Both the position numbers and the translations under genes were made by a program. From Fistulifera solaris (taxonomy: Eukaryota), in assembly GCA_030295235.1 (NCBI GenBank), contig AP026179.1, positions 248,001 to 312,000 of the forward strand: DNA of 64,000 nucleotides, read 5' to 3'. The notes beneath the pieces are model-generated. The model ran no database searches. It was not told the origin of the DNA and was given only the letters and a program-made list of their open reading frames with translations. Below, piece by piece: positions 15,560-34,794 of this stretch (the stretch's first letter is position 1; each line of letters begins with the position of its first letter).

Positions 15560-15920
15560 ATATGAAGACTTCGGGGTGGCGGTCATCGTTTGTTGCGACG
15601 CCTTCAGGCATCACTGACATACAAGGGCCAAATCTGCCGTTCAGAAACGCGAGATGTCACGCCTTGCAGCACATCTAGCACAAAATGTACCCCGGGCAAT
15701 GGGATTACTGGCATATATTCTGAAAGCGGGTACTGCATACACCAATCAAGTGGACCGCATCAGCTGTAAATTGCATCCTGCTTTGTCGTTTTTTGAAGCT
15801 TACAGTAGCAAACTCCCCGTTAAATGCTTTCTCTGTGCTAACTTTGGTCGCTACGGCAGACGACAACGAATCCAGGCCAAAATTCTGCTCGGGAGCTGTG
15901 GCGGAACCATTTGCTGATCC
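15560..15920 (+). pseudogene. Degenerate copy of the secreted PPC-like family
   Basis: Reads GGHRLLRRLQASLTYKGQICRSETRDVTPCSTSSTKC...WDYW...LKAGTAYTNQVDRISCKLHPALSFFE across frameshifts, matching 18620..19261 and 27475..28101, then degenerates. Confidence 0.75.
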
Positions 15921-16105
15921 CAACTGATTTTTATTCCAAGACGCTAGCCATTGTCAATTCCGCCCTGTTAACAACACTTATAAGCAACTGAGGGGCATCT
16001 GTACAAAGTGAAGATCAATCTTCGTCCGTCTTGTGTCTACACGACTTGGGTAATGGAGATCGTATGAGATTACGTAGAGTTGCATGTCTCACATCCTTTC
16101 TTCGT

Positions 16106-17806
16106 TCAAATAAGTCGAACCATGTCATGGTCACGCGTCCCACCTAGACGGCGACCAGCACCCAGATGATTCCAGGACGATGGCAACGATTCTTGCACGC
16201 TGTTTTTTTCTGCAACATCGATAGCCATAAGAATCTCTCGTGTAGGTTTCAGCACGGTCCAATTCAAGGCATAGTAAAAGATTCCTGATGGTGTCTCTTG
16301 ATACAGAAGATGCGAGTGGATCATCCACACAAGAGTGATCATCGAGACGACGGTCCGACATACCAAAGTCAAGATGGAGGGTAACATAAAACCCCAAACA
16401 GGTCGAAGCATGACCATCCAAGCACCTGCGGTCATTGCATCCGTCACGAGTATGAATAAAGCGACCACGGCATACCCGCGGGCCATTGTCGTATCGTCAG
16501 ACCGCGTAGAAAACCACCAAAGCACCAATATCAGATATTCGAGCGAAAATTTTGAAAGACCCCCACCCAGTTCTAGCAAAGAACACATCCACGCGAAACA
16601 ATGGGTCATCCCGAGGAAAATGAAATTCGAAGAGCAAAATCCACGTCGTCTCGAGAGAAATCGTGTCCGATCTTGTTGCAGACACCATAAAAAGTGCATG
16701 AAAGGTATCGAAATTGCCGGCCACCACAACGCGTCTGACAAAAGTCTCCATTGATACACAAACCCTACCACAATACCGGCCAAGTGACCCGTCCACGACG
16801 CTCGAGGTAACAACAACTGCATCATCACCAACTGAATCAAAGGCCCCGGATGAATGGAAAATCCGCCCCCAACGAAACCGCCGAAAAACATAAATCGGGT
16901 AAAAAAGAATACTGGGCAAAAACTCCCCTGCTCCATAGACAATACCACTAACCATGCAAACAGCACTCCGGAGTATCCCACCGTCGGAATGGAAGGGTGA
17001 TTACTTGAGGAAAAGCGCAACAGCCATTGTAGAATCCACCATAGGATTCCGGTAAACAGCGTCATGGAGAGACTGGTGGCGAAAAATGCCATACTTCCCA
17101 CCCTTTTGTATTCCAACGCCGTCCCCAAGGACGATAACGTCATCATATTCATCCCCAAATGCCACACATCAAAATGTGCCATCGCCCCCGTGAACCAACG
17201 CCACGGTTCATTGACTTGACCAAAAAGCAATCCGACCGCTGACGGTGATAAACGAGCATTCCAGTAAGTGAGAGCCAGTATGGTTTGTAACAACAATAAG
17301 AAGCTTGTTGCCGGGGAGTCTTTGAGATAGGAGGGTAATGAGAAAGGAATGGGAGGTGTAGTTACAAGCGTGATGCGCATCGATGCCCCACTCGAAGCAT
17401 GAATGTAGCTTCCGGAGAAACTGGACGATCTCGAGGAACAATATTCGCGTGCTTTGTATTCAGAACAAATATTATCATTCGTGTTTGATCGTCGTAATGT
17501 CATCTGTTGTTGAGTATCTCTCACCGAAGGTTGTTTCATGTAATAGTGCTCGAGAGACAGAAGATCGATCGGAGGCGCAGCCACAGGAATTAAAGTTAAC
17601 GCATCTTGTGTCGTTTTGACGCTGCTTTGAAACCATTCTGCACCAGGATTGTCACCTTGAGTCACAACCCATAAAGAAGGAGACGCGAAAGAAGAAGATG
17701 CCGCAGCAGTGAAATGCAAATAGGAAATAAGGAAGGGAAGGCCTACCGTCGCTAACAGGAGAAGACAAAAATGAAAGAAGAAAGAATGTGCTGAAGAGAT
17801 CGCCAT
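16106..17806 (-). CDS. Rhomboid-family intramembrane serine protease
   Basis: PWRWFT..AHFDVWHLGMNM, catalytic GYSG and WTGHLAG, multiple TM segments. Start position uncertain. Confidence 0.85.
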   Translation of the reverse strand: MAISSAHSFFFHFCLLLLATVGLPFLISYLHFTAAASSSFASPSLWVVTQGDNPGAEWFQSSVKTTQDALTLIPVAAPPIDLLSLEHYYMKQPSVRDTQQQMTLRRSNTNDNICSEYKAREYCSSRSSSFSGSYIHASSGASMRITLVTTPPIPFSLPSYLKDSPATSFLLLLQTILALTYWNARLSPSAVGLLFGQVNEPWRWFTGAMAHFDVWHLGMNMMTLSSLGTALEYKRVGSMAFFATSLSMTLFTGILWWILQWLLRFSSSNHPSIPTVGYSGVLFAWLVVLSMEQGSFCPVFFFTRFMFFGGFVGGGFSIHPGPLIQLVMMQLLLPRASWTGHLAGIVVGFVYQWRLLSDALWWPAISIPFMHFLWCLQQDRTRFLSRRRGFCSSNFIFLGMTHCFAWMCSLLELGGGLSKFSLEYLILVLWWFSTRSDDTTMARGYAVVALFILVTDAMTAGAWMVMLRPVWGFMLPSILTLVCRTVVSMITLVWMIHSHLLYQETPSGIFYYALNWTVLKPTREILMAIDVAEKNSVQESLPSSWNHLGAGRRLGGTRDHDMVRLI

Positions 17807-18619: not shown

Positions 18620-19261
18620 ATGAAGATTGCTGGCACCCATTTCCTTCTCATTTCGTCCATTCTTTGGAAGACCAATTTTGCCACTCAAGTCGAAATCGCC
18701 CCGGAACTCATGTCATTCGAAGAAAAGCAAGTGATGATGATGAAAAGCGATAACGGTCATCGCGTGTTGCGCAAACTTCAGGATATCTTGACCTACCAAG
18801 GTCAAATCTGCGGGGCGGAGACCCCAGGCGTCATGACGTGCAATACAGCATTGACCGTTTGTCAGCCCAATCAATTCGACTACTGGCTGTTGAACTTGAG
18901 AGCTGATATTACTTACACCATTGAAGTGGATCGTGTCAGCTGCAACCTGGATCCGGCCTTGTCGTTGTTTGAAGGAGTAGGAACTACCCTCCCGACGGAA
19001 TGCTTTGGTGATAATGGAAGTCCCGAACTCACGCTGATTGCAACGGCGGATGACACGGAAGTCGTACCAGCCTACGGCAATCCAGAATCGTCGCCATTCC
19101 TTGACCCCACCATTGTTGTCACGCCAAGTACTACCGGGCCGTTTACGTTGGCGGTAGTCAACTTTGGTTCCGACACTGCTTCGTGCCGGTCCTCCGCGGG
19201 CTATCAGTACAAGATAAAGATCAATCCCCGTCCTTCGTGTATCACGCGATCTTTGCCGTGA
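18620..19261 (+). CDS. Secreted Cys-rich protein with a PPC (pre-peptidase C-terminal)-like domain, copy 1
   Basis: Signal peptide, RKL motif, and the PPC-like pattern YTIEVDR..DPALSLF..LIATADD..DP.I.....GPFTLAV. A 5'UTR intron is likely (GTAAGC 18490 to TTTCAG 18568). Confidence 0.7.
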   Translation: MKIAGTHFLLISSILWKTNFATQVEIAPELMSFEEKQVMMMKSDNGHRVLRKLQDILTYQGQICGAETPGVMTCNTALTVCQPNQFDYWLLNLRADITYTIEVDRVSCNLDPALSLFEGVGTTLPTECFGDNGSPELTLIATADDTEVVPAYGNPESSPFLDPTIVVTPSTTGPFTLAVVNFGSDTASCRSSAGYQYKIKINPRPSCITRSLP

Positions 19262-19873
19262 GTTACTTGCCACCGCAGTTTCCGGTTTGTCTAGAACGAA
19301 AGTAATTCTTGCATCAACTGTCGCCACAAATATTTGCTAGAAACATTTTTTATCCCCGTACTTTCCACCGATAATTTCAGCTATTTAGAGCTTTGTGTTG
19401 GGTAAGCAATCTTTGTTTTCTTTGTTCGGTTGACTGGAAAAAGTCTAACAAGTACCGTACCTAAAGTCATATAATTTGTTTAGCACGTACCGTCCTGGAC
19501 ACGATGATGGGCGAACGGAGGAGTTTGTACAAAGTATTCTTCCACGCTTGCCTACCGAGAAAAATAAAGATCCGGTTCACACACGGTAAAAGCCAAACAA
19601 GATGGCTTCGTGAAATTTAAGTTTTGTCATTATGTCAAGCTTATACTGAAAAGAGTGCTCACGCATACCCCGCAAGAGACTAGAAACAGCACATCGAGAT
19701 CGACTGTGTTTGCTACCACGTCTGAATTCGACCACGAGGCATCCGTCATGCAGTGTCGCAGGACACGACGAAGTTTTATTGTGTGCTGCTCAAGGAAACA
19801 TTATTGAAAAAGGGAATTTTTTACTTATTTATCCTTCTTTAAAAATGCTGCAGCAAACTACGCATCATTTGCT

Positions 19874-21122
19874 TTAGAAGCGAGCACCGGTTGGACCGAA
19901 GAGTTCGGCCGGACTGAGACGACGACGAGACTCATCGGGGTTGTCCGTCAACGCGCAGTCGTCAAAGCAATGACCTGCTCCGCAGCACGACGAGGCGCAT
20001 CTTTGCGTGGGACCGCATTCCGCATTCGAACTACAAGCAGCGACATTCACGCAATTGTTATCGCGCCAGCAAAGGGAGATCCTTCTACATCGACATCACA
20101 CACGCAGTCATACACGCCGACACGAGGATACTGCGTACAGAAAGGAGTGGGAAGCGTGCATTGCCAGTCCGAGGCAACGACTCCTCCTCCACAGGAACAA
20201 GACCCGTTGTCAACGTGAGAACAGCCGACCAAAGGATCGCAAATGTCGTCCGTGCATGGATCGTTATCATCACAAAGCAAGGGAGAACAAACCGCGCACT
20301 GCACTCCGGCGGTACCTTGACCTGGATCCGATCCGTCGGCAGTCGTACAAATCGGGTAGCCGCGCGGGCACTGTGTAATAAGAAGCAACAATCAATCAGT
20401 TTCGAAGATACATCCGTTAGTAAGTGAAGCAAAAGGCACACGGCAAAAACTTTCGACGATAGCAATCCACAACAACTTACTCCTCTATCGGCACCTAAAC
20501 GGCTCGTATCGACGCAATTCGCCACACAATTGGTGCCAAAAGTGCGCAGGGCCGGACTCTGGCCAGAGTCATTGACACAGATCGGTGCGGTGGGAGGACA
20601 ACCGTCGTCAATGTCGTTGGGATCTGTAGCAGCCGAGATTGAGTTGACACAAAGAGCGCACGCGGTTCCTTCGACGTTCGCGGCCAAAGGGCGGCTTCCA
20701 ACACAGACACGGAAGTCTTCATCGCATCCTTCATCCGGAGCAACTTGACCAGCATTGCTCGGAAAGCGCGAGTTGATGCACAAGGCACAGTGATGTCCGG
20801 CGTTGCCGTCCACTACCTGACCACCATTTGCGTACACACACGTGGGGAACGCTTCGGTGCAACCTTGATCGATCACTTCTTTCCCGAGATCGCGACATGG
20901 TGGACCTGTTTCGACGACTCCAGGACACGGACTAGTCCCAGCCGGGCACTGACCACTTCCACTTAAATTGTAGCAAACGCCACCCGGACGGGCTTGACAC
21001 TGGGTGCCGGGGCTACCGGGGCTGCAACTGCCGCATGACTGCAAGTCACGCTCTTGATGAATCTTGGCCCACGCAGTTGTCGAGAACAACAGCAGTACTG
21101 CAAAAGACGAGAGATGCGTCAT
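19874..21122 (-). CDS. Secreted Cys-rich repeat protein with a Dictyostelium CTDC-type repeat, copy 1. Intron 20371-20480; indel at 20071-20073
   Basis: Signal MTHLSSFAVLLLFSTTAWA, then ERDLQ, four DxGC....P.C-type repeats and CDDNDPCTDDICDPLVGC. The corrected C-terminus ...SRRRLSPAELFGPTGARF matches the paralog. Confidence 0.8.
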
Positions 21123-21734
21123 CTGCAACAACGGCGCTTGTGAGATTATCGCTTGACAATGGCGAGATGGGAACAAACACTGATCGCTGGGTGTCGTACC
21201 TTTGATGATTTTCAATTAGTCGGTATTCCAAAGTTAAATCGATCGATTTTATGACAAGTTTGGATCTATTTGGTTAAAAGATCTTTTCGCTTGAAATTTG
21301 CGATTTGATGCGATAATTTAAGGCTACGCAGTCTAGTCTCAAGAAGGTAGATTACCAGGTATATGATATAGTATAGTATAGTACATTAGTTTTTTTGTAC
21401 ATTACAAGTTGTTTTCAGATTCATAATACGACAAAAACGACATACGGGGTAAAATAGGTCGTCAACCGAGAGCCCAGAGGCATAAAAGATAAAAGATTGC
21501 AATCCTGCACAGGCGCTTGGCGCTTGAGCGTTTCTTGCCACTTGCCTTTAAAAACTGTTTGTTGCTTGGGCAGTGGTCAAAATATCTTGCCTTTCGACAT
21601 TATTTATTTGTTCTTCGACCTAGAAAATTAAGTAGACTCTTATCACAGTTACAATTGTCAACTTTCATAGGAGTAATTGTTTTTGTGTTAAAAAAGTTTA
21701 CGAGCTCATGAGTCACGAGCCTTGAGCCATCGTC

Positions 21735-21793
21735 CTTCATCCTTCATCCTTCAGCATCCTGCATCTGCCATCAGCCATCTGCCATCAACCATG
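21735..21793. repeat. Degenerate 7-bp tandem repeat (CCTTCAT/CATCTGC)
   Basis: ccttcat ccttcat ccttcag catcctg catctgc catcagc catctgc catcaac. Confidence 0.6.
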
Positions 21794-22304
21794 AACTGTC
21801 ACATATAGCCCAGAGCCCATATAGAGTACTTGTTAGTATTTAAAACGTAAAAGTTAAGTCGTTGTAAACTGTGAGGGAAACGTCGCACGTTATGTGTAAT
21901 TATTTTACTGATAACAGATGACAGATGATTGACGATGATTGTTTCAGATTGAATCCTGTGCCAGATAAGAAGTACTTTGTAAAAAAGTGAAGGTTGCATG
22001 CATTTTCACGCGAGCACAGTCCAAGCAAAGAAGTATATGTTACACATATACTACGTACTTCTTTGGTCCAAGCAGTCAACAAAGATCGCTGAAAGATTCA
22101 AAATCAAAGGCGTAGAAAAAGATCCTTTTACTTTTCAAAACATCACCCAAACGTTTATTTCTCAGTTATTAGCTTGACCAGGTAAATCGTTTTACAATAT
22201 CGACGTGAACATTCTCGAGGCTATCGATTTAACCATTTTTCTTTTCCACTCTTTCTCGGTTGTGTTTTGAAGCTAGTTGCTTCCTCCAATCGAAAAATCC
22301 AATC

Positions 22305-22933
22305 ATGAAGTGCTCCAGCTACGGCCCTTTTATCACCTTGTCCCTCCCTCACAACAACCGTCAGGGCTGCAATTGAGGTCCAAGCTTTCCGCGAGCCGAT
22401 GACGCTCGAAGAAAAACAGGCGCTGGTCCAAGACGATGGAAGTCGTCGTTCGATGCGGGAGCTTCAAACCGCCCTGACGTACAAGGGTGAAATCTGCAGC
22501 GCGGAAGCTCAAGGCATGATGCCTTGCAACACCTTCAACACAATATGTCAACCCGACAAGTTTGACTACTGGCTTTTTTAATTTACAAGCCGGCATTACT
22601 TACACCATCGAAGTGGATCGTATCACTTGTGGCCTGGACCCTTCCATGTCGTTGCTTGCAGGTTTCGGTACTGTACTTCCGGGTGGTTGTGACGGTAGAT
22701 CTGGCAGTGCCGAACTCGCATTTATTACTTATGCAGATGATAACGATTCATTGCCAGGGTCGTGCTCAGGAGTACCATCACCTTTTTCAGACCCCAAGTT
22801 TTCGGTTACCCCCGACACGGATGGGCCTTTCACCTTGGCCGTTTCTAACTTTGCTTCAAACATCGATTCCTGCACGGGGGCACTCGGTTATCAGTACAAG
22901 GTGATCATCAATCCTGCTCCTTCTTGCATTTAA
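22305..22933 (+). CDS. Secreted PPC-like protein, copy 2 (indels near 22345 and at T6 22574-22579)
   Basis: ORFs 22399..22581 and 22562..22933 align end to end with 27475..28101. ATG at 22305 gives a signal peptide after a 1-nt correction. Confidence 0.7.
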
Positions 22934-23618
22934 GAAGGGGCGCCTTGACTTGAGAAAGCCTTGAGGTTTGGTGCCTGCACATTACATACAATCGTCATTC
23001 ATCCCAGCTTGAAATGGTTTTAAAAAATGATAACAAGGATAATGACGGATAAGAGTAACCTTTACGAATTCACCATTTGCTATCTCCTTTGTAGACGAAT
23101 GCATCATTGCACCATTCATTATCATTATAATTGTTCTCGGTATGGTGAAAAATGTGATGGTTTCTTTTTGTCGCAAGCCTGTGACTCGTTTTATCGCGCC
23201 CGTCTCCAGGCATAATTTCGTTTACTGCATGCATCGCACGGCACCATGCGATGACTTGCTTTTAGCCGCCTGCTCTTCGTCCGTACCTGGTACGGCACAA
23301 AGAAGAAATAAATACGGACGGAGACGACGCGTTGTTATGCGTCTTTTTCGTCGTACGTCCTCTCATCAAGTACTACGTATCCCTAATTAAGTACTTTGTA
23401 GTTATGTACACAGAATGATGAGCATTATTTGAATACTAAAGCCATAGCAAGCGCAGAGATAGCAAAGGTATGTAGCCACAATGGACGATAAAGAGCCAAA
23501 AAGAAATAATTACCAACAGAAGCAAACAGCTCAAACGTAATCACGGAAGATTCATTATTTAGGCCGCATCGAAGCATCATCATTCATTTCTTGGCGATAA
23601 CATTTTTCTTTTGAGAAC

Positions 23619-24281
23619 GATGACGAGTGAATCATTGACAGCTACGACGGATGTCCCTTCACGTAATCGCCGTTCCGCTTTGTATTTACTCATAACCGTA
23701 TGCGTGTGGTCTTTCTTCTTTCTCGTGCAAGAACGAGAGAGTTTGACATTATTAGCGTCGTCCTTACAAGGACGATCTTCATCGCAACAAGTCGCAACGA
23801 GCAGAAATTATATTCGCAACATTGACGAGACTTATTACAGTTACAATAGCATTCACAGCAATGAAACAATTCACATATTATTCGGTTTAAAAGGAAAAGA
23901 TCCAGCGTTTCTAGCAGAATTTCAAGTTGCACTCAAAAATGTGTTATTGCAAGCACCGCTCGATCAACCCATGCACATTCACATTATGGCCGATGAAGAA
24001 GCCTATCAATCAATTACAGTCAAACAAAGACAAATGGAAGTCCCGAACTCACGCTGATTGCAACGGTGGATGACACGGAAGTCGCACCAGCCTACTGCAA
24101 TCCAGAATCGTCGCCATTCCTTGACCCCACCGTTGTTGTCACGCCAAGTACTACCGGGCCGTTTACGTTGGCGGTAGTCAACTTTGGTTCCGACACTGCT
24201 TCGTGCCGGGCCTCCGCGGGCTATCAGTACAAGATAAAGATCAATCCCCGTCCTTCGTGTATCACGCGATCCTTGCCGTGA
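23619..24281 (+). pseudogene. Chimeric, out-of-frame GT8(5')::PPC(3') fusion
   Basis: 23655-24033 is almost identical to 28827-29205 (GT8 5' part), and 24033-24283 is almost identical to 19013-19263 (PPC copy 1 3' part). The junction is out of frame, with a stop at 24057. Confidence 0.9.
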
Positions 24282-25262
24282 GTAAACTGATTCGTAAGTT
24301 CAACACGTGAGGTTTGATTTTCTAGAATAATGAAAGCATCGTGCATCCTCGATCAATGAACCTTTCTAAAACCTTGATGTTCATTGATAATTTTGAGAGC
24401 ATTTGAGGGTAAATAACTTCTATGTCGCTTTGTTTGTCTATAAGAAAGCCTTAGAGTTTTGGAAGCGAGGAGCAGCGAACGAAGGAAGTCCTTTCCATAC
24501 GATTGCTTGGCGCTTGTAGTAACCTAAGTAATCCTCTACTGCGAAAGCTGTTTGAGATCCGATTTAATTACACTTGCATTTGAATTTAAAAACGAATACA
24601 GTGATGTAATACAAAGTTACTTCGTGTCGACATCAGCATCATGTGGCACATTATCAAAATCAAAATTGGTCAAAACGCGACGATGTGCGATGTACTTCTT
24701 CATGCAGGCATAGCAACGATGAAAGTGCCAGGACTGTTTCTCCACCATGAATCACGAATATTTCATCATCATTGCATTTTGCGGACGCGATGATGCTTAT
24801 CAATAAGTCAGTCTACTTTGTATCTATTGCATTGGTGCTAAAAAGGATTGATGTTCAGAAAAATGCATTTCTAGTACTTGTTCTTTTTTTATTTCCTATT
24901 CCAGTTTTATTGATTCAACAATCAAAGACTAGCAGCGCACTGCACTCCAGCATTGCCTTGACCAGGATTCTTTCCGTTGGCAAGGACACAAAGAGGAAAG
25001 GTAGTGGAACACTGAATTTATTGAAGCAACAATTAAATCAATGAGTCAGTCGGTGAGATGATGAAACATTTCAAATACTCGGTGATAATACAACACAAAA
25101 ACTTACGCCTCGGTCAGTACCGCTACCGATACGTTTCGTATTAACGCATTTCGCCACACACGTTGTACCAGACATACACCCGTTTCTCTCTACGAAAGCA
25201 ATGTTTATCATGAGAAGCTTACTTGTTTAGTTTTCTCTTATATAAACTACGTTTGATTCGCT

Positions 25263-26350
25263 TTAGAAACGAGCACCGGTCGGACCGAAGAGTTCCGTCG
25301 GATTGAGGCGACGCGTAATATCCGAAGTATCGGTCGCTTCGCAGTCCCTCAAAGCAGTGACCGGCTCCGCAGCACGACGAAGCACATCTCTGATTTGGAC
25401 CGCAATCTGCATTTGAGCTGCAGCCAATAACGTTTACGCAGTTGTTGTCGCGCCAGCACAACGGATATCCTTCCACATCCACATCGCAAACGCAATCATA
25501 TATGCCGACACGAGGATACTGCGTGCAGATCGGAGTTGGAAGCGTGCACTGCCAGTCCGAAGCTACGAGTCCTCCTCCACAGGAGCAAGATCCATTGTCG
25601 ATGTGTGAACAGCCGACTAAGGGGTCACAGATGTCGTCCGTGCAGGGATTGTTGTCATCGCAGAGCAACGAACTGCATAAGGCGCACTGCACCCCAGCAT
25701 TTCCCTGCCCTGGATCGGAACCGTCTTCTAAAGTGCAAATGGGGTATTTTCGGGGACACTTTATTCATTCAAAGCAATACATAATCCGTTGTTAGTCACG
25801 TGGTAGCTCATGAGAAGTAATTTCATTGCGACAAGACCCGAGAAACAAAGCAACTTACACCTTTATCGAAGCCTAAACGACTCGTATCGAAGCATTTTGC
25901 TATGCAATTTGTACCAAAACTGCGAAGGGCTGGACTTTGCCCCGCATCATCAACACACACGGGTGCGGTGGGTGGACAGCCGTCGTCAATGTCGTTGGGA
26001 TCAAGAGCAGTGGGGATCGAATTGACACAGACTGCACAAGCCGTTCCTTCCACGTTCGCGGCCAACGGGCGAGTGCCCACGCAAACGCGAAATTCTTCAT
26101 CGCAGCCTTCATCGGGGGCGACTTGACCGCTGTTCCTCGGAAAGCGCGAGTTAATGCACAAGGCGCAATGATGTCCAGCATTGCCTCCGACTACCTGACC
26201 ACCATTCGCGTACACACACGTGGGGAACGCTTCGGTGCAACCTTGATCGATCACTTCTTTACCAAGATCGCGACATGGTGGACCGGCTTGGACGCCAGAT
26301 TTCGCTACCGTCGAGAAGATTAGGAATGTTCCGAGAGATAAAAGACGCAT
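25263..26350 (-). CDS. Secreted Cys-rich CTDC-repeat protein, copy 2. Intron 25759-25858; indel at 25346-25348
   Basis: Paralog of 19874..21122 with the same intron position (DKG|CPRKYPIC). It lacks the first Cys module. The corrected end is ITRRLNPTELFGPTGARF. Confidence 0.8.
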
Positions 26351-27474
26351 CTACAGCACAATTGTAAGCAGAAGAGACGAAACAAACTGCAAGGGCTGCG
26401 TCTCTTACCTGTGATCGTTTCAATGAGTCAATGTTGCGGTCGACAATTTATGATTTTTCTGAGCTCTGAGCCGTCTGGCAAAATCCTTGATGAGGTCTTA
26501 TGAAACTTGATACATGAAACCTGGTTCTCGTTCCTTGCCGGTTTGTCAATGCGAAATGCGAGGCATAAATAATTGATTAATGGATTTGCGATCTTTATTT
26601 CTTAACACTGGAAACCGGAAACTGCGGAAATGATAAGCGATAAGCGAGAACAGTAAAGTGGCAAGGAGAACCTCCAACTTCTTAGATCATATAGCCTATA
26701 GCTTTTGATTAGCTCAGTCTGAACTTGATCTACTGCCTGCGTTGCAGAGATCTAGAGAACAAGGAAATCTCTACAAAGAGAACTTTCAACTTCGCAGAAC
26801 CAATACTGCTCAGCTTGAAAATAGACCCACAGTATAACAGATACTCCTAGAGAACAAAGATACCCCATACCCCTCCAAAGGAGAAAGAACCTCTGTAGGC
26901 AGAGCAACTAACAATAAACAATAAATGATACGGAGTACGTAGACACGTAGTACGTAGTACTTTTATCTATTGTCACGCAGTACACAATACAAACCAGTTC
27001 TGTGAATTTTCTAGAGGCTCTCTACCTGGTAACATCACTGGGACATCATACATCATGCAGTCAAGAATCATTTCGAATGTGCAAGAGAAGGAGGAATCCA
27101 GTGACAAGGAGCAAGGAGCAGATGTAAAATTGGTAGAATACAAGTACTTGTATCTTTATTCCTTTTAAGCCACGATCTTAAAAGACAAGAGAATTTTTGC
27201 GAACTGTGCTAGTTGAAGATTGCATGCACTTTTCTAAATCAACGTGAATTCAAGAAAGATCCGCGCAAGATCCGATCCAGGACCCTCGAAAAGGCTGTGC
27301 GATTTCCAACGTGCAAAACTTCGTTAATTTGTCACAAGCGTTTGTGATTTGCAAAGCATTGTAAGAGTTGTGAAATAGCGATGTGAGTATTTTTGCCGTA
27401 AACGATCTCACAATGTTTTTTCTCCGCCTCTTTGTTCAGTAGCTCGCTCGTTGTAAAGCCCAAACAGAACAACC

Positions 27475-28101
27475 ATGCGAAGATTCGTTTCATGTATTTT
27501 CCTTGCCTTTTCCCTTGTCCCATCCGTCACAGATGCAACGGAGGTCCTAGCCGATCCGGAACCATTGACGTATCAAGAAAAAGAGGCGATGCTTCACGGC
27601 AACGGCAATCGTCGTTCGATGCGAGAGCTTCAATCATCCCTGTCATACAAGGGCCAAATCTGCAGCTCGGAAACACAAGGAATGATGGCATGTGGTACCT
27701 ATGGAACACAATGTCAGCCCGATCAATGGGAGTACTGGCTTCTGAATCTGCAAATCGGCACCGAGTACGTCATCGAAGTCGACCGCGTCATCTGTGGCAT
27801 GGATCCTGCGCTGGTGCTATACGATGGTATCGGAACAACTTTTCCACTGGGGTGTGTTTTTGAGCCTGGCAATACCACTGAACTAACGTGGATTGCTGAG
27901 GCCGACGACAACGATCAAGTACCAGCGTATTGTTTTGAAGAGTTCTCCCCCTTTGGAGATCCCAAAATCACAGTCATTCCAGACACCGAAGGACCCTTCA
28001 CTCTAGCCGTTGTCAATTACGGATCGGATACTGGATCCTGCACTGGAGCTCGTGGTTTTCAGTACAAGGTAATCATCAATCCTCCTCCTTCGTGCCCTTG
28101 A
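27475..28101 (+). CDS. Secreted PPC-like protein, copy 3 (intact)
   Basis: 208-aa ORF with a signal peptide, RSMRELQ, and the conserved Cys and PPC-like pattern. Confidence 0.75.
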   Translation: MRRFVSCIFLAFSLVPSVTDATEVLADPEPLTYQEKEAMLHGNGNRRSMRELQSSLSYKGQICSSETQGMMACGTYGTQCQPDQWEYWLLNLQIGTEYVIEVDRVICGMDPALVLYDGIGTTFPLGCVFEPGNTTELTWIAEADDNDQVPAYCFEEFSPFGDPKITVIPDTEGPFTLAVVNYGSDTGSCTGARGFQYKVIINPPPSCP

Positions 28102-28797
28102 TGAGCAGATCGACTGTTTTCTTGTTGGCAATGGATCGTCCTTATTCACAGCACAGCTTGACATGGTTCCAAACATTAACAGCAGATAAAAACGGATACT
28201 TGTTAACCATCACAAACTCCATTTCACTCTCAATTGTAGATTATTGTAACAAGTTCATTCTTTCAATGAAATCTGACAGTACTTGCATTACGATAGTCGA
28301 CCCGTCCGACTTGAAATGGTTCTATTGACTCATTACTTGTAGAACAGAGACTTGAGCATTTACCTATCATATTGTTTGCTTATTTCTATCGGAGGTACTC
28401 CGTATTTTGTTGCCTGTGAAATTTGAAACGCGTCCAAATTTTTTGGCGCGCCTGTCGTCGCGGTCGGCAGCGACGTCCAGATCCCAGTCACGCTCATGAC
28501 GGGAATACGGAAAACGAAACACCAACTGTTCGTTCGTTCGTCCGTCCACACGCAAAGCGAAAGTGAACCATTTCTCGTTTTTTTTTGCCATGCGATATGA
28601 TGATGATGATGATGATGATATTGATCATCATCATCTTGTCGTTTGTCGTTCAAGTGAAGTGAATTGCGAACAAGAGAAAACGCAGATAGCAGCTAGCAAA
28701 TGGAGCGAACAAGAGGTACAAATAGAAGCAATTAACTTTCAACATTACCGAAGGATCATTTCGTCCGCATCTACTCTGCGAACATTTTTTCTTGACA

Positions 28798-30044
28798 ATG
28801 ACGAGTGAATTATTATCCACGGAAGCCCCTTCACGTAATCGCCGTTCCGCTTTGTATTTACTCATAACCGTATGCGTGTGGTCTTTCTTCTTTCTCGTGC
28901 AAGAACGAGAGAGTTTGACATTATTAGCGTCGTCCTTACAAGGACGATCTTCATCGCAACAAGTCGTAACGAGCAGAAATTATATTCGCAACATTGACGA
29001 GACTTATTACAGTTACAATAGCACTCACAGCAATGAAACAATTCACATATTATTCGGTTTAAAAGGAAAAGATCCAGCGTTTCTAGCAGAATTTCAAGTT
29101 GCACTCAAAAATGTGTTATTGCAAGCACCGCTCGATCAACCCATGCACATTCACATTATGGCCGATGAAGAAGCCTATCAATCTATTACAGTCAAACAAA
29201 GACAACCCGTCGATCCCCTTTGCGTCTTTGTTCCGTCATTGCATCAAAAGTGGATGGCGATTCAACCTGTACAAATCCATATCTACAATGTTCAACAATT
29301 GCTCGAACAAGTATGGACGCCCTTCTTGAAAGACAAATTTCAATCTTACTCGTTTCAAAGCATGACGGGACATCATACGGTAGGAGCTTTCTTTCGTCTC
29401 TTGGCGCATCACATTCTATTACGACACGATCCCACCATACAGTATGTCATTTATCTGGATCCGGATGTGCTTTTTTTAGCCAATGTACAAGCAGCTTGGG
29501 AGGAACGACCCATTCATAATCCCGATATTTTGTTTGCGTGGGGCGCCAGCATGTGTTCGGGGTTTTTGCTACTCAATGTGCAACGCTTACATGTCTTTTG
29601 GCAATTGTCCGATACGTTGGATTTACAAAAGTCGCCTCACAATACAAACAATCACCCAACGATCAATTGTTTTTACGGGCCATGAATGTCACACATCCCG
29701 ACAAGGTTAGGCTATTACCACCGGCGTGGGATATCAACATTGCCGATGGAATTTGGAAAATGGCCAAAACCATAGTGTATGAAAGACCCCAAATCGGGAT
29801 GATGCATTTCAATGGTGGCCCGCACCGGACACCACCTGAACCGTACTACAAAGTCCACGAATTTTTGACCAAACCCGAATTGGTAGAGACCTGGGGTGTG
29901 GCCTTGTATTATGCGCGAATGCCGTGGACGTGGGCGCGGTATCTCGCCGAAAGTCAAATTCCAGCGAACCGTCCTTCGTATCCGCTACAAGTGCATCTAC
30001 ATCCGACGAGTTGTCCGGAAGGAAATTGTTCGGTTAGTCCATAG
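28798..30044 (+). CDS. GT8-like type II membrane glycosyltransferase (indel at A4 29627-29630)
   Basis: N-terminal TM segment, FFRLL, DxD motif YLDPDVLF, CSGFLLLN. After +1 correction: NDQ and MMHFNGG. Confidence 0.8.
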
Positions 30045-30083
30045 AACTGTCGATGTGATTATAGAATTTTATACTCTACTTGC

Positions 30084-31395
30084 TTATGCGCGGTTCTGTT
30101 TCCATTGCACCAATCGACGACCCATTTCGTTCATGGCTTCGACACCACCATGGGGCCACGTGTAGACAATACGGAACATACCCGGCTTCTCACCGTGAAA
30201 GCTTTCTCCCAATGTCAACAACACATTGGCCTCATCATACAACTCCATCCACAATTCTCGCTCGGTTTGATTCGGACGCAAATACGCGGAAAAATCCGCC
30301 CACGCAAAGAGTGTTCCTTGGGTGCCTTCATACACCGAAACATCAATCCGTGCTAAAGCCTCTTTCGTGGCCAAGAACACTTCGTACAATCGTTTTTGAT
30401 TTTCCGCCAAATACCAATCTCTCCATTCTTTGTCATTCAACAGTTGTGTGAACGCCCATTGGGTCAATTGTGAAACACCATTGTAATACGACAACATCCC
30501 CATTGCCTCGTACAAGGCCGTGTTGTGTGTCATTAAGGTCCCGACCCGCAAACCACTAGCACCCCAATCTTTCGAAAGACCGGCCACAATGTGCACGCGA
30601 TCACCCAAATAGTGCGTGGCATTGATATCTTTGTTGCGTTCCCACATGATTTCGGCCGCACTCGTGACGTGGATTCCCGGAAAGACGGAATTGCCATAAA
30701 TTTCGTCCGATACCACGTGCAAATCGTGTTCCAAGGCCCAATCGATCATGGTTTGCATGCTTTCTTTCGAATACACAGCACCCGTCGGATTGTGTGGTTG
30801 ACAGATGAGAAGAATGCGGGGAATATGACCCGCTTGTCGGGAGGCATGATACGCCTGTTCAAGATCGTGACGTGTCGGTTCATAATTCGTCAAAGGAAAG
30901 GTCGGTAGGAGTTGCATATGCAAATGACCGTGAATACCGAAATCGCCCGGAAAGGCGGCATAAATAGGACCATTTACCAAGACCCCCTCGGAAGGTTCCG
31001 CCAAAGTCCAGGACAAGACATCGAGAATGGCTCCAGCGCCACTGCCGATCACGAGAGCCTCGGAACGAACGGGGACACCCTTCATCCACGAATCTTCCAT
31101 CATGTGCGCCAACGCTTGACGAAAGGTCGTGTGACCATGAAAGTCATCATAGTCCAACACCCATTCTGGAATCATGGTGGAAGTGTTATGCATGGAAGTG
31201 AGTAATTTTTGTGACAATTCTGGATAGAGGAGACGATTTTCGGCCACTAAGAGACTGAGTTTGCCGTCAGGATTATCGATAGGATGATATTCATTCGCTT
31301 TAGCGTCCATGAATACCGAAATATCATCACGAACTAAAGGAATGATGGCGCGCGACGACAAATGATGCGGGCCTTTCGGAGTGAGTTTGGATGTG

Positions 31396-31438
<43 letters not shown>

Positions 31439-31709
31439 AAGGCGATGCCTGAGAGAGTACATTGACTGTCGTCGTCGTTGATTCATTTGTGCCCTGAGTT
31501 GCCAAACAAACCAGAAGAAGGAACAGGAGACTGATACTCAAGAGACTGTACGACAAACATCGTCGATGATGCAAAAGAATGTTCGTGTTGGTTCGATCGT
31601 CTTCCGAAGACAGTTTGTTGTCGATTGTGTCGTCCTTATTTTTTTGTGTAATCCGAATCGATTGATAATACGAATAGTTGGTCGTATTGGTTGTTGTTGT
31701 TGTTTTCAT
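30084..31709 (-). CDS. ACC-synthase-like PLP-dependent enzyme (aminotransferase class I/II) with an N-terminal TM segment and His14 tract
   Basis: AENRL, DFHG, PHNPTG, DEIY, GLSKDWGASGLRVG (PLP lysine) and PGMFRI match the ACS boxes. The start could be 31769 or 31709. Confidence 0.85.
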
Positions 31710-32039
31710 GGTGATCAGAGTAAGATAAAAAGAGCAGTACGGTACCGTACCAGGTAAGCTTTGATCCATTCGCCGAAGATAGCATCAGGAATTGGCAATG
31801 AAATTGAATGAGATCGAAAAAATTCCTCCGATAAACGCAGCTGCACCGCGCGAGCGAGGAGGAAGATCGAAGATGTTCGTGGCGTTACTAATATTATCCA
31901 GTAGAGTGTAGTCGGACAGGACTGCTGATGCAGTCACGAGCTACAGAAACGACAGAATAGTAAAAGTGGCCGTTTATTATTACGATGATATCCATCAACT
32001 ACAAGTTTCCCCTTTAGGATGGGCGATGCATTGGTTCAT

Positions 32040-33567: not shown

Positions 33568-34794
33568 TCAGACTTGCTCGTCCGCATTATGTAATCTTGT
33601 TTGAAACAGACGTTTCCTCAAGTCCAATATTTCGACATCTTCAACAACTGGATAATGTGGTGCGGTTGGTACCACGAGTGGAGAACGACATTGGACACCT
33701 GTGTCTTTTGCGCTTCCAACTTGGAAAAAACGGGAAACCTCTGCCTTTTTGCGCTTCGAACTTGCAACTTCGATGCTCTCTCTTTGATCAAAACCAAGAT
33801 CAAGTATATCATTAGGCGAGTTTGCTTCCTCACTCAATGGAGTTAGCTGTACTTTGTCTGGCTTCTCAACTTCACCATTAAGCAGGTTTGCTTCCTCACC
33901 CAATGGAGTCAATTGTACTTCATCGAACTCCTTGAATTCTCCATTGTTGCTCTCATTTTGATCAAAACCAAGACCAAGTAAATCACTAGGCGAGTATGCT
34001 TCCTCACTCAATGGAGTTAGCTGTACTTCATCAAACTCCTCGAGTTCTCCCTTTACAAAGAATCAAAATAAAAGTCCTCAGTCTGTCAGTTTTGTGGTTA
34101 CAATAATTCATGTCGACTCAATTGCACACCGACTTACGAATTCGTCTTGTCTTGGTTTCTTTTCGCGGAGCGCCTGGCTCGTTTTCTTTCTAGCTATGCC
34201 ATCCCCCACATCATACCACTCTCCCTTCTTGTCATTTTGCAAGAAACGTCCGGGAGGATCTTGGTTTCTCCAAGCAAAGACAATCTTCTCGGCGAACGCA
34301 GTCTTTTCATTTTTTTGTTTAACCCAGTGTATTCCAGTTTATGATCGTTAACCATCTTCCTGTACCGCTTATTACCTTTGTGGTGATTCGTACGTCCTGT
34401 AACAAAAAGCAAGAAACAAACAAACAATTGAGCACCAAGTACATTCATTGTACATCCAACAAACCATATTCCCAACAGACGCGATACTCACCACCACGGC
34501 CTAATAAAACATCATGTTCGTGTGGTTCCGCGATATTTTTCAGCGGATAATTATCATTCCACCGTTTGGCGGGTTGTGGTGCCGGATGTGGATCTTGCTC
34601 TGCCGGTGGGTGTGACGCTGGATGCGGAGCTGGATGACGTGCATGCTCGGCCGCCGGGTGTCTGTCACCTTCTTTTTGTATTTGCTACGTAGCATTTCTT
34701 CAAACATTGCGTCTGACAAATCCTCATTCTCATCATCTTCGCTTGGTCGCTTTGCTTTTCCCTGGTCGACAGATTTACAATTCATGGTGATCAT
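33568..34794 (-). CDS. DUF6824-domain protein (diatom-expanded family). Introns 34397-34491 and 34051-34137; frameshifts present
   Basis: The spliced, corrected product reads HDVLLGRGGRTNHHKGNKRYRKMV...PPGRFLQ...WYDVGD..ARKKTSQALRE, the DUF6824 signature. Confidence 0.8.
33824..34030 (-). repeat. Three intragenic repeats encoding VQLTPL(S/G)EEA
   Basis: Near-identical cttcctcac(t/c)caatggagt..tgtactt units at about 33824, 33890 and 33998. Confidence 0.8.

Follow-up and report, generated by a model that had tools for sequence, protein, structure and literature searches.

How can two neighbouring units of one chromosome be almost identical at their ends, and yet differ so much in between that parts of them hardly align? 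This question is raised by a cluster of genes for putative secreted proteins in a stretch of 64,000 nucleotides from Fistulifera solaris (assembly GCA_030295235.1, contig AP026179.1, positions 248,001 to 312,000 of the forward strand), which we call the window and whose own numbering is used throughout. The cluster is set between a rhomboid gene and an aminotransferase gene and reads, in order, PPC_A, CTDC1, PPC_B1, a 5' fragment of a GT8 gene, a 3' fragment of PPC_A, the relic of a third CTDC gene, CTDC2, PPC_B2 and a full GT8-like gene (the names refer to the Pfam families PPC, Dicty_CTDC and Glyco_transf_8). It forms two units, 19013-24032 and 24033-29205, which we compared by a repeat finder and self-BLASTN. 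We tentatively favour, at somewhat less than an even chance, a real partial tandem duplication in a small birth-and-death cluster of secreted-protein genes, in which an old duplicated block would have been kept alike in PPC_A and GT8 by gene conversion and would recently have suffered an internal deletion.

Near-identical ends around divergent cores

The structure itself is directly visible. Between the left ends, 19013-19263 and 24033-24283, there are 6 differences in 251 nt (97.6% identity), namely at 19047, 19065, 19076, 19112, 19190 and 19252, and five of the six change an amino acid. The right ends (23599-24033 and 28781-29205) are 95% identical overall, and from 23655/28827 to the junction of the units only 3 of 379 nt differ (23795, 23852 and 24012; 99.2% identity). 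The identity ends 2 nt past the stop codon of PPC_A and restarts about 12 codons into GT8; on the 5' side of the 99% stretch of GT8, homology continues at about 65-70%. Between these limits CTDC1 and CTDC2 are 77% identical over 1067 nt in BLASTN (78% at the nucleotide level over 327 aligned codons), an N-terminal Cys module of CTDC1 being missing from CTDC2, and PPC_B1 and PPC_B2 are 67% identical over 581 nt (65% over 207 aligned codons). A preliminary description, made from the letters alone, had already reported an order repeated twice with near-identical ends and divergent cores, a collapse of identity after the PPC stop codon with resumption about 10 codons into GT8, and the difference of a whole Cys module, and these measurements bear it out on all three points. 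It was also right to exclude a simple recent duplication: a uniform recent duplication of the whole unit is ruled out by ends that are 0.8-2.4% diverged and cores that are 22-35% diverged. Its statement that the spacers do not align is true of self-BLASTN, which gives no spacer matches between the units, but not of global alignment, in which each cognate spacer pair is collinear and above shuffles (z 3.7-9.0, against -1.3 and 0.9 for two non-cognate control pairs). The whole 5-kb unit is therefore homologous, with non-coding parts near saturation.

The units also seem to exchange sequence, to judge from a conversion-like patch shared by the two CTDC genes (Table 1). This patch has 3 differences in 95 nt, against a third-position identity of 30-55% elsewhere in the gene (sliding window), and none of 2000 codon permutations reaches its longest runs allowing 0, 1 or 3 mismatches. 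No conversion-like patch was found in PPC_B, where 991, 248 and 83 of 2000 permutations reach the observed runs.

What are the ages of the ends and of the cores? The nearest named proteins are FisN_26Hh022 (a PPC protein, about 60% identical) and FisN_26Hh023 (a CTDC protein, also called P0008 here, 88% identical to CTDC1), which carry consecutive numbers and lie on one 427-kb Fistulifera solaris scaffold; metagenomes scanned with profiles of GT8 and of CTDC yielded no relative. The CTDC tree has the form (C2,(C1,FisN_26Hh023)), where C1 and C2 are CTDC1 and CTDC2, with a support of 99/95 on 21 rows and 92/90 on 9 rows, and the N-terminal Cys module is common to CTDC1 and P0008. PPC_B1 forms a clade with its relative P0002 (support 100/99), and the approximately unbiased (AU) test rejects a clade of PPC_B1 and PPC_B2 (p 0.0009). 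The GT8 fragment and the full GT8 are 2 amino acids apart, and compared with their relative P0004 they have 110/125 and 110/126 identical residues (15-16 differences each), the differences from P0004 being common to both.

The trees and the GT8 distances together place the split of the cores before, and that of the ends after, the separation from the P0008/P0002/P0004 lineage, and the discordance between the ages of ends and cores is a matter of observation. In the history favoured below, the CTDC/inner-PPC cassettes would be old paralogues that split before the separation from the FisN_26Hh023 lineage. We assume that P0002 and P0004 come from the other subgenome of F. solaris; the order of events is unchanged if they come from a sister species. 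The marks of partial concerted evolution are present: some parts (the 5' parts of GT8) are more alike between the units than to the orthologue, other parts (CTDC1, PPC_B1) keep their orthology, and the CTDC patch is a conversion-like tract between the units.

The junction and the sequencing runs

The junction 24032|24033 fuses about codon 138 of GT8 to codon 132 of PPC_A, out of frame. One A is common to both parents (a microhomology of 1 nt), there is no N at the join, and the junction matches the ends of homology on both sides to the letter. No difference between the units lies within 21 nt to its left or 34 nt to its right. Gene conversion requires homology on both sides of its tract, so that the last letters before a homology edge cannot be renewed by it. 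Because no differences stand next to the junction, and because conversion would be unable to refresh a homology edge, the present junction appears to be young; what turns on the mechanics of conversion is here something that we infer. The GT8 truncation can be polarised as well. P0004 is a full-length GT8 of 407 amino acids, and its N-terminus is nearer to the truncated copy of unit 1 (9/13 identical, no gap) than to the copy of unit 2 (6/13, with a 2-residue gap), from which it follows that the truncation is the derived state. Among the three spacers, conservation is highest in the one that precedes the dead GT8 fragment (z 9.0), as if it had served a working gene until recently.

Does the junction exist in the cell? 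Among the sequencing runs, X1 contains 94% of the region's sampled words, in all 30 bins including the spacers, and we treat it as genomic DNA; its depths are per-contig k-mer figures from one run, and not copy numbers. Contigs of the outer flanks have depths of 16.2, 15 and 15.4, those of the cores 14.3, 18.3, 16.5, 13.3 and 12.3, and the repeated ends about 24-35 (24.2 for contig 24032-24272; a mean of 31 for bin 28816-29349). Outside the repeated ends, neither PPC_A before 19013 nor GT8 after 29205 shows a doubled depth. Since the doubling is confined to the repeated ends, near-identity truly stops at the junction of the window, and since the flanks are about as deep as the cores, and not twice as deep, the existence of two alleles is not supported; the half-depth cores by which the preliminary description proposed to recognise alleles did not appear. 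In addition, four X1 contig ends (23684, 28856, 24242 and 19222) fall exactly 30 nt from a unit-specific difference (23654, 28826, 24272 and 19252, respectively). Record 1 of X1 ends at 19042, which is 19012+30, though the copies do not differ again before 19047; in X1, 19013-19042 must therefore have a second sequence adjoining it on the left, which is what the junction demands.

Between 16000 and 32000 the window departs from the X1 contigs by single-letter indels at a rate of about one per kb, mostly in homopolymer runs, and these indels explain the apparent frameshifts in PPC_B1, CTDC1 and CTDC2, and probably that in GT8. In PPC_B1 the letters 22346 and 22574 are missing from X1, and 22574 also from X2 and X3; in CTDC1 the window is short of one T in a T-run near 20072, where the X1 and X2 contigs are one letter longer; in CTDC2 the window has an extra letter at 25346, missing from X1. 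The frame of GT8 changes between 29520 and 29685, where record 7 of X1 has one gap, and this change is probably an assembly indel. Read through, all four genes give full-length proteins collinear with their relatives, and we consider them probably intact. The runs X2 and X3, guessed to be RNA, contain difference-free pieces of CTDC1 and PPC_B1 and none over unit 2, with a cover too thin to judge unit-2 expression.

For the rhomboid and aminotransferase genes, a second version is also present in the runs; it departs from that of the window by 3-7%, chiefly at third codon positions (16000-16436, 16704-16893 and 30034-31112). This is as expected for the other subgenome of an allodiploid, and F. 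solaris is described as an allodiploid with two subgenomes in passages of two reports (PMC5935921; bioRxiv 10.1101/2021.11.10.468027). The window most likely represents one subgenome of F. solaris, other than that of FisN_26Hh022 and FisN_26Hh023, or else a very close relative.

Competing histories of the locus

In the history that we favour, an ancient tandem duplication would have copied a whole block made of PPC_A, CTDC, PPC_B and GT8. Gene conversion would then have held the PPC_A copies and the GT8 copies alike, in their coding sequence only, while CTDC, PPC_B and all spacers would have escaped it and diverged almost to saturation; conversion confined to coding sequences, as proposed here, would explain why the limits of identity lie at the stop codon of PPC_A and just inside the start codon of GT8. 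Finally, a recent deletion using the 1 nt of microhomology would have run from within the first GT8 across the intergenic DNA into the second PPC_A, taking away the 3' portion of the former and the 5' portion of the latter and leaving the chimeric stump 23620-24283. The former full-length middle genes and the deletion are thus inferred from what remains. We prefer this history because it needs only common processes, because exchange between the units is visible, and because relics of copy gain and loss are at hand: the PPC pseudogene psiPPC_0 and the CTDC relic psiCTDC indicate that the cluster gains and loses copies.

Several observations weigh against it, and should be kept in mind. The AU test against a clade of CTDC1 and CTDC2 is borderline (p 0.051). 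No other-subgenome partner of CTDC2 or PPC_B2 is found among 19 CTDC and 3 PPC matches, which is weak evidence, since CTDC1 and CTDC2 of the window are themselves missing from the database. Next to the relative of CTDC1 stands FisN_26Hh022, a PPC protein of the B-clade whose identity to PPC_B1 and to PPC_B2 is no more than about 60%, which is hard to fit to a simple two-unit ancestor. A second full-length PPC_A or GT8 is not seen, and the history has to suppose that both once existed. The idea that conversion held PPC_A and GT8 together for a dS (synonymous divergence) of about 1, while the two genes between them escaped, is ad hoc. Lastly, X1 may be the source of the window assembly, in which case it is not independent support, and none of the X1 contigs listed bridges 24033.

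The main competitor starts from two very old CTDC + PPC_B haplotypes, kept in the recombining flanks of a diploid ancestor and recently placed in tandem by an illegitimate exchange between homologues. It accounts for the same discordance, with cores older than the lineage split, younger ends and a young, clean junction, and also for the association of the type-1 GT8 N-terminus with the type-1 cassette, which is found in the window and again in its relative P0004/P0008; moreover, the fixation of two alleles by heterogeneous duplication has been described, as far as the sections of two mosquito studies go (PMC6121789, PMC5137868). It would imply that ancient secreted CTDC + PPC haplotypes persisted across the split of the hybrid's parental lineages and were captured on one chromosome, as a permanent "heterozygosity" at a recognition-type locus, which we consider unlikely, as we do the exchange that would have captured them. 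Indeed, the balanced polymorphism would have to be very old, surviving over 4.3 kb for two to three times as long as the subgenomes have been separate; the partners in the exchange would have to be homologues and not sister chromatids, and the two breakpoints would have to lie no further than 251 and about 435 nt from the diverged core. These demands make us rank it below the old-block history, and the extra CTDC and PPC relics show ordinary duplication and decay at this place. The selection signature of a balanced recognition locus, which the preliminary description had suggested, does not show over whole genes either: dN (nonsynonymous divergence) is 0.11 and dS 0.82-1.13 for CTDC (dN/dS about 0.10-0.13), and 0.32-0.35 and 1.19-1.44 for PPC_B (dN/dS 0.22-0.29), so that neither gene gives a gene-wide sign of diversifying selection, with two sequences for each and dS near saturation. 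Of the original proposal of deeply diverged haplotypes joined illegitimately, the depth of the divergence (dS of about 1 in the cores) and the clean, young, non-homologous junction survive, whereas the version with alleles or an assembly join is not supported.

The alternative that the preliminary description itself had named, gene conversion of the ends, has become a part of the favoured history, but its plain form, in which the present breakpoints are as old as the cores and the short end fragments were kept parent-like by repeated conversion, strikes us as very improbable. The conversion-like CTDC patch does argue for exchange between units. Against this stand the 55 letters around the join (21 left, 34 right) without a difference, where the homology edge should have decayed like the spacers, the relative P0004 with its full-length GT8 and unit-1 type N-terminus, and the good conservation of the spacer upstream of the dead GT8 fragment, unexpected if it had never served a gene. 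Only a little less improbable is an assembly artefact, in which alleles, homoeologues or a copy from elsewhere were strung together by the assembler and the junction is absent from the cell. The indel rate noted above, the missing bridging contig, the length of the ends (251 and about 380-435 nt, about one read) and the allodiploid genome would all fit it, and an earlier pyrosequencing assembly of F. solaris is mentioned as having many unsolved regions (bioRxiv 10.1101/2021.11.10.468027, in the portion available). The letter-exact join without an N, the equal depth of flanks and cores with doubling over the repeated ends only, and the X1 contig break at 19042, which fits a second left neighbour, speak for a real junction, and the homoeologue CTDC (P0008) differs from both CTDC1 and CTDC2, so that unit 2 is not simply the homoeologue.

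Two further ideas were tried and rejected. The overwriting of one core from the homoeologue is at odds with the distance of P0008 from CTDC1 (88% identity) and of P0002 from PPC_B1 (78.7% identity), both being more distant again from unit 2. The insertion of a stand-alone chimeric piece of 685 nt between old cassettes is incompatible with the collinearity of the adjoining spacers and with the homology of about 65-70% that continues upstream of the 99% part of GT8.

The gene cluster, its proteins and known parallels

The features of the locus are collected in Table 1.

Table 1. Genes, relics, repeated ends and exchange patches of the cluster and its flanks (window positions).
Feature	Position	Strand	Basis
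psiPPC_0, decayed PPC pseudogene, spread over several frames	15566..16040	+	tblastn with PPC_A and PPC_B2; open reading frame (ORF) pieces
Left flank gene, rhomboid family	16106..17806	-	Pfam PF01694, E 6.4e-18
PPC_A, full-length PPC-like secreted protein, 213 amino acids	18620..19261	+	ORF; A-clade with P0027 and P0028 in trees
Left repeated end, copy 1 (last 82 codons of PPC_A, stop and 2 nt)	19013..19263	+	97.6% identical to 24033-24283
CTDC1, Cys-rich, two exons, intron ~20372-20480, extra N-terminal Cys module	19874..21122	-	collinear with P0008 = FisN_26Hh023, 88% identical
Conversion-like patch in CTDC1	20812..20906	-	3 differences/95 nt vs 26190-26284
PPC_B1, 208 amino acids after dropping extra letters 22346 and 22574	22305..22933	+	read-through; 78.7% identical to P0002
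Chimeric ORF: GT8 residues 1-~138, then 7 out-of-frame codons from PPC_A fragment, stop	23620..24057	+	ORF 23563-24057; alignment
Right repeated end, copy 1 (5' part of GT8)	23655..24033	+	3 differences/379 nt vs 28827-29205
Junction GT8 fragment / PPC_A fragment, 1 nt (A) common to both parents	24032..24033	.	alignment of both ends
Left repeated end, copy 2 (3' fragment of PPC_A, not in the frame of the GT8 fragment)	24033..24283	+	
Relic of third CTDC gene (exon 1 end, intron, exon 2 start)	~24925-25175	-	tblastn 25011-24916, 56%; repeat finder family
CTDC2, two exons, without N-terminal module	25263..26350	-	sequence; read-through
Partner of conversion-like patch, in CTDC2	26190..26284	-	
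PPC_B2, 208 amino acids	27475..28101	+	ORF; equals P0001; structure model pLDDT 87.6
GT8-like gene, full length	28798..30044	+	ORFs; 86% identical to P0004
Right repeated end, copy 2	28827..29205	+	
Right flank gene, class I/II aminotransferase	30084..31769	-	Pfam PF00155, E 1.5e-47

The third-CTDC relic sits in the spacer of unit 2, between the PPC_A fragment and CTDC2, and the CTDC genes of the window carry introns, in line with its eukaryotic origin. In BLASTN, psiPPC_0 (15583-15781) is 70% identical to PPC_B2 (27609-27809), and the position of this pseudogene beyond the rhomboid gene suggests that the PPC cluster was formerly wider. At 19076, compared with 24096, full-length PPC_A has a Gly in place of a Cys that is conserved in the truncated copy and in each of the six further close members of the family that were compared, and PPC_A may be under relaxed constraint. 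Long His runs (8 and 13 His) occur in the ORF translations 28360-28692 and 30084-31784, both on the minus strand, the aminotransferase ORF carrying one of the runs in its N-terminal part, and a short tandem repeat lies at 33774-34053 (units of about 81 nt, 85-93% identity in self-BLASTN).

The PPC, CTDC and GT8 proteins all start, as judged by eye, with a hydrophobic N-terminus. None of the PPC ORFs of the window matches a Pfam family, and the protein P0003 scores 21.2 bits on PF04151 PPC (bacterial pre-peptidase C-terminal domain), for a cut-off of 25.9. A PPC profile gathers 154 relatives at E<=0.001, and of the best 30, 11 match PF04151 at E<=0.001 and five pass its cut-off; a sequence search of solved structures with a 50-row PPC profile gave 0 matches. 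A structure model of PPC_B2 (27475-28098), with a predicted local distance difference test (pLDDT) score of 87.6, was compared with known folds by Foldseek. It matches the pre-peptidase C-terminal domain 5sv5 with a template modelling (TM) score by target of 0.72, and the collagen-binding domains of ColG/ColH with TM 0.57-0.65; according to this model, PPC_B2 is predicted to have the PPC/collagen-binding beta-sandwich fold. When matches over the full length are considered, CorA comes first (4bz4, TM 0.50); CorA/MopE (2vov), copper-binding surface proteins of methanotrophs, thus stand ahead of plain PPC domains, which may point towards a role in binding metal.

For Pfam PF00526 Dicty_CTDC (cut-off 27 bits), the scores are 27.1 for the exon-2 ORF of CTDC2, 25.9 for CTDC1, 23.6 for P0008 and 25.1 for P0014, with a single marginal repeat each; CTDC is a large Cys-rich family with arrays on F. 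solaris chromosome 18. The GT8 label is used because one relative, P0006, just passes PF01501 Glyco_transf_8 (25.4 bits for a cut-off of 24.3); P0005 scores 13.9, and the ORFs of the window and P0004 match no family. A literature search on diatoms and the pre-peptidase C-terminal domain returned only an unrelated match, and a recognition role of the cassette is speculation.

All this looks like ordinary turnover, by duplication, conversion and deletion, in a fast-evolving secreted-protein cluster, and not like two alleles. Nevertheless, a single 10-kb stretch holds two very different ages, with cores older than the subgenome split and ends younger than it, and such a discordance can mislead the dating of gene families, the pairing of homoeologues and the checking of assembly quality in hybrid genomes. 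If, instead, the haplotypes were real, this would be, for diatoms, a first candidate case of a balanced polymorphism that lasted long and was then fixed by duplication.

How does this locus compare with known systems? Mixed concerted and divergent dynamics are reported, in the available part of the study, for tandem arrays of Trypanosoma brucei (PMC1855330), where some parts are homogenised by conversion while others keep orthology across species once the repeats are disrupted, and where, in the same part, coding and non-coding regions conflict in their phylogenetic signal, much as they do here. Unlike these arrays, our locus has two units, each with two genes on opposite strands, its homogenised parts are truncated stumps of flanking genes, and its junction is young. 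For the haplotype history, the closest described kind is the heterogeneous duplication of ace-1 in mosquitoes, which, in the sections available (PMC6121789, PMC5137868), also puts two differing versions of a locus in tandem, with flanks more alike than the core; the ace-1 alleles, however, differ at few sites and belong to contemporary duplications, whereas our cores have a dS of about 1 and are older than a species-level split. False haplotype-derived duplications in heterozygous assemblies have the same layout (flank, version 1, partial flanks, version 2, flank), but here there is no gap, the join is letter-exact and the depth of the flanks is not twice that of the cores. Finally, F. solaris itself offers a parallel in the LPAAT tandem repeat, which the consulted part of its description (bioRxiv 10.1101/2021.11.10.468027) presents as subgenome-specific, absent from the homoeologous chromosome, and confirmed by spanning nanopore reads and polymerase chain reaction. 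Its five copies, according to the same part, differ by two nucleotide polymorphisms, in contrast to the unit cores described here, which are 22-35% diverged.

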